This document shows positions 17,060 through 39,601 of a stretch of DNA of 42,172 nt, piece by piece. The notes beneath the pieces were generated by a model. That model did no database searches, had not been told where the DNA came from, and saw nothing but the letters and a program-made list of their open reading frames with translations. The position numbers and the translations under genes were made by a program. Within the stretch, counting starts at the first letter, position 1, and every line of letters starts with the position of its first letter. The DNA comes from Candidatus Woesearchaeota archaeon (GTDB taxonomy: Archaea > Nanobdellota > Nanobdellia > Woesearchaeales > WJIZ01): positions 1 to 42,172 of the forward strand of contig JAAOYF010000015.1 in assembly GCA_018221205.1 (NCBI GenBank), read 5' to 3'.

Positions 17060-18025
17060 ATGCCCGTATTTGCATTGAAAAAAAAGAGGTTTAGTAAATT
17101 CATTTCCAAGCTCACGAAGAGCTATGAAGTCATCGCTCCTGTCAAGGAAGATGTAGTGAAATTCCAGCAGATCCAGGATGCAGATGAGATCCATTTTGAA
17201 AAAAACTCTTTCTTTCCTGTCAAGGAATATTTTTTCAGGAAGCAAGAGACCATCTTTACCTTTGATGGGAACAAAATAACTGTTCCGGCTTTCAAGACAC
17301 CTTCCCGAGTCTTTTTTGGGATACGACGGTGCGATCTCAATGCGATTGCGCATCAGGATGTGGTGTTCAAAGGGGCAAAGGATCCTTATTACACTGAAGC
17401 GCGGGAAAAAAGCATCCTTATCGGTTACCATTGCGATGAAGCGCCTTCACCATACTGCTTTTGCGGCAGTCTTGAATTGGCAGAGTTCTTTGACCTGATG
17501 TTCTTTGACAAAGAAGACTATTTTCTTGTTGAGACAGGCAGCCAGAAAGGAGAGAATTTCGTGAAAAAATATATGGGCTTGTTCAGCAAGACCGATAAAA
17601 AAATAAGTGCAAGAGATAGGTTCATCTTGGGAGCGGATAGGCTGGAGAAGAAAGATATCAAGGAGTTCTATGATCATCCTGATTGGAAAAAGGGAGTTGA
17701 TGTCTGTCTGAGCTGCTCAGCCTGCACCAATCTTTGCCCAACCTGCTACTGTTTTGAGCTGCATGATGAAGTGAATATCAGCAAGCCTTCAACAGGAGAG
17801 CGGAAGAGGACGTGGAGCAGCTGCCAGGTGCAGGAGTTCACTAAAGTTGCCGGTGACCATGTCTTCAGAAAAGATAGAGAAGAAAGGTTCAAACATCGTA
17901 TCTATCATCAATTACAATATTTCAAGGAAAAAAATGGTGTAGATCTCTGCGTCGGCTGCGGTAGATGCGTCGAAGGATGTCCGACACGGATTGATTTTGT
18001 CCAGATACTGAACGAGATGAAATGA
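17060..18025 (+). CDS. hydB: Group 3b [NiFe]-hydrogenase (sulfhydrogenase) beta subunit, Fe-S
   Basis: 'CLSCSACTNLCPTCYC', 'CVGCGRCVEGCP' and 'RFKHR'. Start taken at ATG 17060. Confidence 0.85.
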   Translation: MPVFALKKKRFSKFISKLTKSYEVIAPVKEDVVKFQQIQDADEIHFEKNSFFPVKEYFFRKQETIFTFDGNKITVPAFKTPSRVFFGIRRCDLNAIAHQDVVFKGAKDPYYTEAREKSILIGYHCDEAPSPYCFCGSLELAEFFDLMFFDKEDYFLVETGSQKGENFVKKYMGLFSKTDKKISARDRFILGADRLEKKDIKEFYDHPDWKKGVDVCLSCSACTNLCPTCYCFELHDEVNISKPSTGERKRTWSSCQVQEFTKVAGDHVFRKDREERFKHRIYHQLQYFKEKNGVDLCVGCGRCVEGCPTRIDFVQILNEMK

Positions 18026-36718: not shown

Positions 36719-36834
36719 GGGCCCATAGTTCAGTGGCTAGAACGTCTCCCTTACAAGGCAGCGGAAATCAGATTTCCTGGTCTTTCGTTGTTGACGAAAG
36801 GAGAAGGTCACCGGTTCGAGTCCGGTTGGGCCCA
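36719..36834 (+). tRNA. tRNA-Val(UAC) with a 43-nt intron (nominally 36756-36798, position 37/38)
   Basis: GGGCCCA/TGGGCCC acceptor, GTTC/GAAC D stem, TCTCC-CT-TAC-A[intron]A-GGAGA, and ACCGG-TTCGAGT-CCGGT T arm. TTTTAAA box upstream. Confidence 0.9.
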
Positions 36835-36835
36835 T

Positions 36836-37020
36836 GAGATTTTTGCCCGCTCCCTGCGGTCATGTCAGAAATGCAAAGCATTTCTGATCACCATCAAGAA
36901 TCTCCGATTCTTGAGGCTTAAAAATCTCGTAATCCTGGAAATCGAAGATTTCCGGGAACTTGGAAATCTACTATTTCCAAGTAAAGCGGGCGACATTCGC
37001 ACCTTTGGTGCTCAGTCCCC
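36836..37020. repeat. Modular palindromic element, copy 1, immediately 3' of tRNA-Val
   Basis: Backbone GAGATTTTTGCCCGCTCCCTGCGGTC / GCTTAAAAATCTCGTAA / AAAGCG..TTCGC..GCTCA is shared with the tRNA-Gly(CCC) intron. Interrupted by two double-hairpin inserts. Confidence 0.85.
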
Positions 37021-37034
37021 CGGAACAGTTTACC

Positions 37035-37457
37035 ATGTACAAACGCACACAAATAGGCTATCTCATCCTTTTCAGCTTTCTTATCACTATTGCGCTTATC
37101 TTTTATCTCTCCTCTCAAGAAGAAGCACCTGTTGAGTGGTTGGTGGGTTTTTTCTTCCTCTTAATCCCACTCTTCTCTACACTTACGGTTTCAGTCACTG
37201 ATCGCATCACTGTCAGATTTGGCATAGGCCTTATCAGGAAGAATTTTGTTCTCGAGGATATTGTCAGCTGCAAGCAAGTCCGGAACAGATGGTGGTATGG
37301 CTGGGGAATCAGATATTTTGGGAGAGGATGGCTGTATAATATCCACGGATTAGACGCTGTTGAGCTGCAGTTCAAGAATGGGAAAGTAGCGCGTATCGGC
37401 ACAGCTGAGCCTGATAAATTATGCAACGCAATCAAGATGAGGCTGCGTTCTCCATAA
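37035..37457 (+). CDS. Hypothetical membrane protein (2 TM plus PH-like domain)
   Basis: Start MYKRTQIG, with 'WWYGWGIR', 'LYNIHG..AVEL' and 'IGT.EP..L'. Confidence 0.75.
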   Translation: MYKRTQIGYLILFSFLITIALIFYLSSQEEAPVEWLVGFFFLLIPLFSTLTVSVTDRITVRFGIGLIRKNFVLEDIVSCKQVRNRWWYGWGIRYFGRGWLYNIHGLDAVELQFKNGKVARIGTAEPDKLCNAIKMRLRSP

Positions 37458-37492
37458 TATTTAAATATCAACCCCCTACTCAATCAAGCCAT

Positions 37493-37578
37493 GCGGTAGT
37501 AGTATAGTGGTTAGTATACGACGTTGCCATGCTTCGCGCAAAGACGTTGTGACCTGGGTTCAAATCCCAGCTGCCGCA
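37493..37578 (+). tRNA. tRNA-Gly(GCC) with a 14-nt intron at 37530-37543 (37/38)
   Basis: Cloverleaf with CGACG-TT-GCC-A[TGCTTCGCGCAAAG]A-CGTTG. Central BHB helix UUGC/GCAA. TTTAAATA box upstream. Confidence 0.95.
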
Positions 37579-37615
37579 TATATTTTTTATAGTTGGTTCT
37601 TTTACCTTGTTTTAT

Positions 37616-37820
37616 GCGCAAGTAGTATAGGAGTTAGTATATGGGCTTCCCAGGAGATTTTTGCCCGCTCTCTGCGGTCGCTTAAAAATCTCGTAAAAAG
37701 CGTGGGTTTCGCTTTTGTAGGCAAAGCCTACAATCCTTTGAGCATAGCTCAAAGTTCGCTCAAGCCCACAGAAAATCTCGGAGAGAGCCTGAGACCCGGG
37801 TGCGAGTCCCGGCTTGCGCA
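37616..37820 (+). tRNA. tRNA-Gly(CCC) with a 133-nt intron at 37653-37785 (37/38)
   Basis: GCGCAAG/CTTGCGC acceptor and TGGGC-TT-CCC-A[intron]A-GCCTG. BHB with central helix UUCC/GGAG and intron helix GAGAUUUU/AAAAUCUC. Confidence 0.93.
37654..37779. repeat. Modular palindromic element, copy 2, forming the tRNA-Gly(CCC) intron
   Basis: 42 of 43 nt at 37654-37696 are identical to the copy 1 backbone. Carries its own double-hairpin insert at 37715-37754. Confidence 0.85.
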
Positions 37821-38514: not shown

Positions 38515-38654
38515 TGCCCCCACGGAGATTTGAACTCCGGGCCTCCGGCTGGCCTAGAGAATTGCTGGAACATGCCCAGCAATTTCATATAAGACTTGCG
38601 CGTTAAGAGATAGCCTCTAGACACGGCGCTCTTACCAGCCTGAGCTATGGGGGC
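38515..38654 (-). tRNA. tRNA-Ile(UAU) with two introns: 28 nt at 29/30 (38596-38623) and 37 nt at 37/38 (38551-38587)
   Basis: Removing both introns gives a 75-nt cloverleaf with CCGGT-CT-TAT-AA-GCCGG. Intron 1 BHB: central GCGC/GCGC, outer AAGA/UCUU. Intron 2 BHB: central CUUA/UAGG. Confidence 0.9.
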
Positions 38655-39333
38655 GTAGTTTTTTAACCCTTGCCTCAAAATCGAGCTCGTCGATCCTCGG
38701 GCAGTATCCAAATCGTTTCCAATGTTCAAATTTGGATAGCTTATCTGGATGGTTAGAGCCGATGTGGTGCATGAACTTAAATAAGTTTTCCTTTCCATGG
38801 AGTTTGACAGAATCTTTGTAGTGGCTTATTTTAACCCGAAAACCGAGCGATTTGAATATAGATTCTAGTTGATTGACTAAGGCAGTACTATGCGTAGATA
38901 GTTCAATAATGGGGTAAAAACGCTTTTCTGAGTTGTTCTTGGTGAAATAGAGACATCCATCAGTGTCAAATATACCCCTTAGAACAGGCAACAATTGTTT
39001 TCTATGAGTAATTCTTTCATTGATTGAAATTTCTCCCTTCTTTCCGTAAGGAAATCCTAATTGGTTATGTAGAGAAATTGCAAATTCTTTATATTCGAAC
39101 ATAATAAATATACAATTTCCAATCTTTCTCGACCTAATACTGACTTTTCTTTCAATAATTCTCTCAATTAATGGCTTTAAGTATTCTTTATAGTATTGGT
39201 AATCTGTTATGGAATTTCCATCTATTCTAATAGCATAATGGGTTCTTCCACCTGATTCAAATCTAGATATGCAACCATCTCCTATAAGGATTCCATATAG
39301 TTCAAGCAGATCATCATTTATCTTTAGATTCAT
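38632..39333 (-). CDS. Free-standing double-motif LAGLIDADG homing endonuclease-like protein
   Basis: 'LLELYGILIGDG' and 'VLRGIFDTDG'. GGAGGTG RBS before ATG 39333. No flanking intein splicing motifs. AT-rich. Confidence 0.88.
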   Translation of the reverse strand: MNLKINDDLLELYGILIGDGCISRFESGGRTHYAIRIDGNSITDYQYYKEYLKPLIERIIERKVSIRSRKIGNCIFIMFEYKEFAISLHNQLGFPYGKKGEISINERITHRKQLLPVLRGIFDTDGCLYFTKNNSEKRFYPIIELSTHSTALVNQLESIFKSLGFRVKISHYKDSVKLHGKENLFKFMHHIGSNHPDKLSKFEHWKRFGYCPRIDELDFEARVKKLRPHSSGW

Positions 39334-39601
39334 GCTAGCACCTCCAAAGTTCTTGTTCTTTTGGACTTTGGATATCAAAAAGTGGATGTTCAGCGAAACT
39401 CCGTAATTGATTTTGGTACTGAAATCATTATTTGGGAGTTTTGCGTATTCTCTTTCTGATGGATTCTTTATATATGTTACATACATAAATAATGTCCAGT
39501 GCTGAATCCGGAAAAATTGCAAAAAGGGCCATTTTATAATTTATATATCCCTATTTCAGAAAGGTTTTAATAGTTCTGTGATATCTGTACTATCGGGGAA
39601 G

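Follow-up and report, generated by a model that had tools for sequence, protein, structure and literature searches.

The question raised by this locus is whether a short palindromic element that lies free beside one archaeal tRNA gene can also become the spliced intron of another. The window, a 42,172-nucleotide stretch of DNA from a Candidatus Woesearchaeota archaeon (contig JAAOYF010000015.1), carries on its plus strand tRNA-Val(UAC) (36719..36834; assigned from Rfam RF00005, 61 bits, and from sequence), a hydrophobic ORF of 140 residues with no match in Pfam (37035..37457), tRNA-Gly(GCC) with a 14-nt intron at position 37/38 (37493..37578), and tRNA-Gly(CCC). The 5' exon (37616..37652) and 3' exon (37786..37820, with TGC in place of TTC in the T-loop) of the last are separated by a 133-nt bulge-helix-bulge (BHB) intron at 37/38 (37653..37785). 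The 37/38 intron of tRNA-Val (36756-36798), which was placed by eye, is 43 nt long and has one small hairpin inside. The host assembly is 1.28 Mb in size and 95% complete, and the genome is the sole member of its genus among those searched. Further along the window, in the region 38515-39522 (minus strand), the end of a 296-residue LAGLIDADG-domain ORF overlaps a tRNA gene with an intron (38515-38654) at the 5' end of the latter; in relatives G003 and G006 no such ORF adjoins the syntenic tRNA.

Two copies of the element lie here, 820 nt apart and both on the plus strand. The free-form copy 3' of tRNA-Val (36836..37020; fold z = -9) comprises hairpin 1 (36836-36924, interrupted), a linker and hairpin 2 (36983-37020), and holds two nested double-hairpin modules, one of 54 nt in the loop of hairpin 1 (36862..36915), with related modules in other copies, and one of 50 nt in the linker (36933..36982). 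The copy within the Gly(CCC) intron (37654..37769) has hairpin 1 at 37654-37692, a linker, and hairpin 2 at 37702-37769, the loop of which contains a single nested module of 42 nt (37713..37754). The original prediction reported 42/43 identity between 37654-37696 and 36836-36861 plus 36916-36932; this was borne out, as were the start points, two bases after the discriminator A (36834) in the Val copy and position 2 of the intron in the Gly copy. The continued likeness claimed beyond this 43-mer proved weak. Hairpin 1 is common to both copies and the second hairpins are of different subtypes; that of the Val copy, which the 50-nt insert separates from its 43-mer, aligns better with the T-loop intron of tRNA-Lys(CTT) on another contig than with the Gly intron.

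The nearest relative of the Gly(CCC) intron is not the Val copy but a free copy that lies where a GH57 gene begins (C1:43210-43295), with which it is identical at 85 of 86 positions including the nested 42-nt module. Another free copy (C45:35024) matches it at 69 of 74 positions when the nested insert is set aside, and the Gly(CCC) intron is a mosaic of two element subtypes. No joints were seen in contigs from two sequencing runs, which fell short of spanning the stretch, and one low-depth run contig has A at 37734, the same base as the C1 copy; neither observation bears on splicing. The Val-adjacent copy carries no long flanking duplication. A possible 5-nt CCATG duplication lies on both sides of it, too short for significance. 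The start codon of the ORF at 37035 lies 14 nt past the end of this copy, which may therefore count equally as an insertion at a gene start and as one associated with a tRNA. The junction between tRNA-Val and the element (36834-36887) creates a new ATG and a 17-codon upstream reading frame before this ORF.

The BHB motif of tRNA-Gly(CCC) has an outer stem paired at 5/5 positions, a central helix TTCC/GGAG paired at 4/4, two 3-nt bulges, and an intron helix, GAGATTTT/AAAATCTC, in which 9/10 positions of the arm pair. The proposal that the ends of the intron form this motif was right in its geometry, but the closing AAAATCTC (37772-37779) lies past the last hairpin, which ends at 37769, and is not the AAAAATCTC of the shared 43-mer (37684-37692). 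The 5' arm thus has two possible partners, the internal one, found in all free copies, and the distal one; the distal partner alone yields a BHB and the internal partner competes with it. The distal arm belongs to a 14-nt tail (37772..37785, plus strand), in which it is followed by the central-helix strand GGAG (37780-37783) and the 3' bulge, and which is missing from the free relatives, the Val-adjacent copy among them. The further claim that the element's own ends keep it spliceable is not supported in that form, as the free form pairs its 5' arm internally, the second, distal arm and the site-matched 4-nt strand being confined to the intron form. Only one base precedes the element in the intron, leaving no host 5' arm and no duplication, and the tail is the minimal arm only, whereas most intron copies share a longer terminal module. 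The splicing endonuclease EndA is encoded in the genome as a 184-residue protein with PF01974 and PF02778 domains.

BLAST and pattern searches of the genome revealed about 30 related elements on 17 contigs, a count that takes in a group with a different 5' part but a common hairpin 2; the two copies at this locus are therefore not the only ones. In each, an A-rich linker joins hairpin 1 to hairpin 2; there are several subtypes, and the core is approximately 60-75 nt long. The gene-less elements measure approximately 70-190 nt, often being enlarged by nested double-hairpin modules of 40-55 nt, which are present in many copies. Of the 30 copies, 11 lie within one of the 34 tRNA genes found or no more than 25 nt from it, where 7% would be expected for non-ORF DNA (p ~4e-6); the other 19 are intergenic or at the starts of protein genes. 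Four copies are inside introns (Gly(CCC) 37/38, Lys(CUU) T-loop, Gly(UCC) T-loop and Thr(UGU) 30/31) and 26 are free, the free copies forming a near-identical group of their own. No Rfam family matched the element at E <= 1. The notion of a non-autonomous, tRNA-associated mobile element of MITE or REP type thus survives in part: the family is dispersed, gene-less, palindromic, enriched at tRNA genes and patchy among relatives, but neither specificity for tRNA genes nor membership of the MITEs or REPs was upheld.

Some smaller introns and one unusual arrangement deserve mention beside this family. The 28-nt T-loop intron of tRNA-Pro(GGG) (contig C64:30310-30457) is barely more than the two arms of the element-filled Lys(CUU) intron, and is possibly an eroded element. 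Short T-loop introns in G004 start like the second element group. On contig C44 (17564-17909) a complete, intronless tRNA-Ser(UGA) (17700-17783) lies between inverted repeats, nested in an apparent intron of another tRNA-Ser(UGA)-like gene, itself interrupted several times.

The element was then sought in other genomes. Scanning the GTDB genomes yielded 52 loci, of which 41 were archaeal; the 11 bacterial loci had no second hairpin and were dropped as chance matches. Named element-bearing records are mostly Woesearchaeota or Nanoarchaeota, some carrying the label Methanosarcinales, which is doubtful. In a pattern search of 200 relatives only eight genomes gave matches, three at most in each, against 17 in this genome; the reversed pattern gave none in 201 genomes, and no match to the element pattern was found in viral contigs. 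The pattern search of relatives contributed 14 later loci, of which six duplicates were dropped to leave eight new ones. The final set comprised 69 loci, 24 intron and 45 free; two free loci, L158 and L168, were lost to a stricter pattern, both having had repeats earlier. Element-like copies L046 and L125 were also seen in the 16S-23S spacer of two genomes.

Two features separate the intron loci from the free ones, with the qualification that each class was assigned by eye and that loci from related genomes are not independent, so that the p-values overstate the significance. The first is the distal arm. In the first test an arm at or below -9 kcal/mol was present at 14 of 19 intron loci and at one of 37 free loci, and this lone free locus turned out to be an intron as well, a BHB intron of 141 nt within the 16S rRNA gene of an archaeon (L141:301-441). 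With a looser arm score the final set gave 23/24 intron against 15/45 free loci, and this genome alone 2/3 against 10/19, which is not significant. The second is the presence of flanking direct repeats of about 11-60 nt, seen at none of the 24 intron loci and at 25 of the 45 free loci, a contrast that is likewise not significant within this genome alone. The eight later-found loci kept the split, with the distal arm at 3/3 intron and 0/5 free loci and repeats at 0/3 and 3/5, respectively.

The 24 intron copies occupy positions 37/38, 53/54, 59/60 and 30/31 as well as the 16S rRNA gene, and in 23 of them the first G of the element falls within intron positions 0-3. At their end stand an imperfect repeat of the arm and four bases that match the host exon; the two combine to give the BHB. 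In T-loop introns this partner strand tracks the exon, CGAA being matched with TTCG in 8/10 cases and TGAA with TTCA in 5/5, and variant 5' arms are paired with matching variant distal arms (L172 and L185). The BHB register was set automatically at 19 of the 24 loci, by hand at four and by eye at one (Thr 30/31). When the 19 automatically registered loci were spliced in silico, 12 gave an ARAGORN call, the isotype being doubtful in some; among the remaining seven, further introns are visible in several. Free copies have a fixed GAG start and a variable spacer at the end. They are found in sense orientation at the starts of genes or tRNAs, while those at tRNA 3' ends are antisense and point into the gene; their duplications rebuild the gene start or the tRNA end, so that an intact gene resumes past the spacer.

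The reading we favour, to which we give a probability of roughly 0.55, is that a non-autonomous element inserts at the DNA level and becomes a spliceable intron when it carries the distal arm. One two-hairpin family would have multiplied in the genome, with the Gly(CCC) intron and the Val-adjacent sequence both copies of it. Insertion into DNA is suggested by the orientation of the free copies, antisense where they adjoin a tRNA 3' end and sense where they adjoin a gene start. An enzyme acting in trans would probably make staggered nicks and then fill in or switch templates. Insertions in tRNA or rRNA loops would survive only where the distal arm was carried or acquired, allowing removal by EndA and ligase; the Gly(CCC) intron would have been gained in this way and would since have undergone recent sequence exchange with free copies. 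A bolder version, which we offer tentatively, is that fold-back synthesis during insertion writes the inverted exon-element junction. Any copy landing in sense orientation within a tRNA or rRNA loop would in that case be spliceable at once, one gene-less element would cycle between dispersed repeat and BHB intron as an archaeal 'introner', and many short introns of these archaea, such as the Pro(GGG) T-loop intron, would be its eroded remnants.

The strongest competitor, although with only about one chance in five by our estimate, is expansion rather than gain: a short BHB intron already existed at position 37/38 of tRNA-Gly(CCC), and the element either inserted into it or replaced its inner part in a gene conversion mediated by the GAGATTTT arm that the two shared. 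Orthologous loci bear directly on this. A first Gly(CCC) pattern matched in 5 of 400 relatives, none in the same family, a second, too narrow, gave 0/5, and a metagenome scan with the 5' exon motif gave five matches, none of them an archaeal Gly(CCC) gene. With a third pattern Gly(CCC) was found in one of six same-family genomes (G001), where it is intronless; its acceptor stem differs from ours on both strands with pairing kept. Among seven other Gly(CCC) genes five have no intron at 37/38 and two have a short, unrelated one, which means that an older Gly(CCC) intron could have been overwritten here. In all four same-family genomes with an observed Val(UAC), the 3' flank of tRNA-Val was empty, but since they lack the downstream ORF as well, none of the four counts as a clean empty site. 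The empty-site comparison that had been proposed at both loci came out as expected of insertion (Gly ortholog intronless 1/1, Val flank empty 4/4) but yielded no clean empty allele among the relatives compared, which included no close strain.

Expansion gains further weight from other tRNA genes. The Thr(UGU) 37/38 intron is short in this genome and in G006 and element-filled in G003 and G004. In this genome the Thr(UGU) 30/31 element sits within separate CCTA/TAGG arms, and the Gly(UCC) T-loop element has a 4-nt TAAC repeat ahead of a self-contained host hairpin; both look like insertions into existing introns. A separate observation concerns the 37/38 intron of tRNA-Gly(GCC), which is absent from G001, 13-14 nt long in G003 and in this genome, and enlarged in G006 (L039:355-475) and G004, where it holds nested hairpins, a series that shows intron expansion. 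At Gly(CCC) itself the mosaic structure and the minimal tail, without the longer terminal module of most intron copies, also fit expansion. Against it are the single base before the element with neither host 5' arm nor duplication, and the starts at intron positions 0-3 in 23/24 loci, which are not expected from random insertion into existing introns. As the same-family Gly(CCC) gene is intronless and five of the seven others have no 37/38 intron, gain is favoured for this gene; both gain and expansion seem to operate.

A slightly less probable alternative reverses the direction, with introns as the source. Excised intron RNA, its 5' end fixed by EndA, would be copied into DNA, so that full-length copies move among tRNA genes and 3'-truncated copies with target duplications become free repeats. 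The fixed GAG end does coincide with the 5' splice site, and free copies resemble intron copies cut right after hairpin 2. The nearest neighbour of 20 of the 24 intron copies is another intron copy, crossings between the two states being a minority. Target-primed insertion leaves variable duplications and short fillers, and those seen here resemble them. Set against these points, free copies outnumber intron copies in this genome by 26 to 4 and form their near-identical group, and the 95%-complete assembly, in which multi-copy elements are collapsed, contains no match to RVT_1.

Candidate mobilising enzymes of other kinds were sought in the same assembly, again with its multi-copy elements collapsed, and no Cas1, DDE_Tnp_1 or phage/tyrosine integrase was found. 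The suggested search for a Y1/IS200 TnpA likewise returned no PF01797 match, in an assembly where multi-copy IS200 is itself collapsed: about 12-13 IS200 ends were found on each side at contig edges with the bodies missing. Judged from relatives, this collapsed element is an IS200 of approximately 630 bp with a Y1 transposase, and the G003 relative encodes Y1_Tnp. A second insertion sequence has 4+4 ends at contig edges with 8-9-bp shared flanks. Because IS bodies are collapsed at contig edges, false blanks are to be expected and the transposase blanks weigh little. By inspection the ends of the collapsed insertion sequences do not match those of the element; one copy shares an 11-nt word with the IS200 left end (shuffle p = 0.014, post hoc). 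Y1 chemistry leaves no target duplication, and IS200 TnpA was not adopted as the mobiliser in view of the long duplications, the lack of a fixed target and the sharing of only that 11-nt word. A nested double-hairpin module (L214) was seen within the left end of an IS200-like sequence in G013.

It is improbable that tRNA-Gly(CCC) is simply a dead gene, broken by the insertion, with its BHB unused and GGG codons read by tRNA-Gly(UCC). This idea draws on the internal hairpin that competes with the splice helix, the TGC T-loop, the presence of Gly(CCC) in just one of six same-family genomes, and the status of GGG as the rarest Gly codon (2850/20528). The competition is evident in folding predictions. 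In the unconstrained precursor fold the 5' arm is in the internal hairpin at 99% against 0.3% for the distal helix, and the exons are misfolded too. When the exon stems and central helix are forced, the two ensembles are at -75.8 and -75.2 kcal/mol, approximately 0.6 kcal/mol apart, and the minimum-energy fold of the anticodon arm and intron alone contains the distal helix. From these models splicing appears plausible but must compete with another fold. On the other side, the BHB is perfect, all four exon stems pair and the acceptor-stem changes relative to G001 preserve pairing; TGC T-loops also occur in the Thr(CGU) genes of G003 and G004. The predicted spliced product, of 72 nt, is called tRNA-Gly(ccc) by ARAGORN.

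Finally, a local duplication or a chance match of two nearby hairpins, for which only their close spacing speaks, is already refuted by the copies on 17 contigs, the closer relative of the Gly intron on another contig and the 41 archaeal loci in other genomes, the family of about 30 copies and the empty reversed-pattern control together excluding chance.

The DNA-level insertion reading is of interest as a testable lead on how archaeal tRNA introns arise, since an intron and its near-identical free relative occur in one genome and a defined 14-nt tail marks off the spliceable state from the free one. Introns of this kind are probably under-annotated, because the intact, unspliced Gly(CCC) gene was missed by both ARAGORN and Rfam; at a relaxed intron setting ARAGORN was too noisy for use. 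A literature search, with most subscription journals outside its coverage, found no description of such a family, and its features may be set beside those of better known systems.

Eukaryotic Introner elements are mobile and create introns by carrying or co-opting splice signals; they are spliceosomal and mRNA-based. The present element resembles them as a mobile element that makes introns, but its signal is a structural BHB formed partly of exon bases and cut by a protein endonuclease. MITEs are characterised by terminal inverted repeats, a target duplication of fixed length and an autonomous insertion sequence with matching ends. Like prokaryotic MITEs the element is short, non-coding and dispersed, and its intron form has imperfect terminal inverted arms; unlike them, its free copies have no terminal repeat, its duplications vary in length, and no insertion sequence with matching ends was found in the assembly with its collapsed IS bodies. 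Non-autonomous derivatives of IS200/IS605 leave no target duplication, use a fixed 4-5-nt target and have IS-type ends, from which the long duplications of the element set it apart, together with its 5' flanks, among which no common sequence was seen.

With REPINs and their RAYT Y1 transposases, as the available part of PMC3116915 describes them, the element shares its nature as small, non-autonomous hairpin DNA with many, mostly extragenic copies. It differs in having two unlike hairpins in tandem rather than a doublet of one inverted REP, in its long and variable duplications and in forming introns; the more REPIN-like part is the nested double-hairpin modules, which leave no duplication. 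In Caldiarchaeum subterraneum, according to the portion available of PMC3293823, tRNA-Thr is disrupted by a 1.8 kb mobile element that encodes a recombinase. In both cases an element has inserted next to a tRNA gene, a fragment of the tRNA is duplicated and there is a link to intron gain, whereas the present element is approximately 70-190 nt long, gene-less and itself the intron (PMC3293823).

The closest parallel is with the transposed BHB tRNA introns of Thermoproteales (Fujishima et al. 2010, as summarised in PMC4090602 and bioRxiv 10.64898/2026.10.13.758758, each in part). There, as at the 24 intron loci here, related introns occur in different isotypes and positions. The available parts of these accounts (PMC4090602, bioRxiv 10.64898/2026.10.13.758758) mention no free-standing form; the element described here is not confined to intron positions, being free-standing at 45 of 69 loci with frequent target duplications, and is also found in a 16S rRNA gene. 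To these systems the locus adds a counted contrast between intron and free copies, a competing internal arm, the 16S rRNA case and an intron nearly identical to a free copy.
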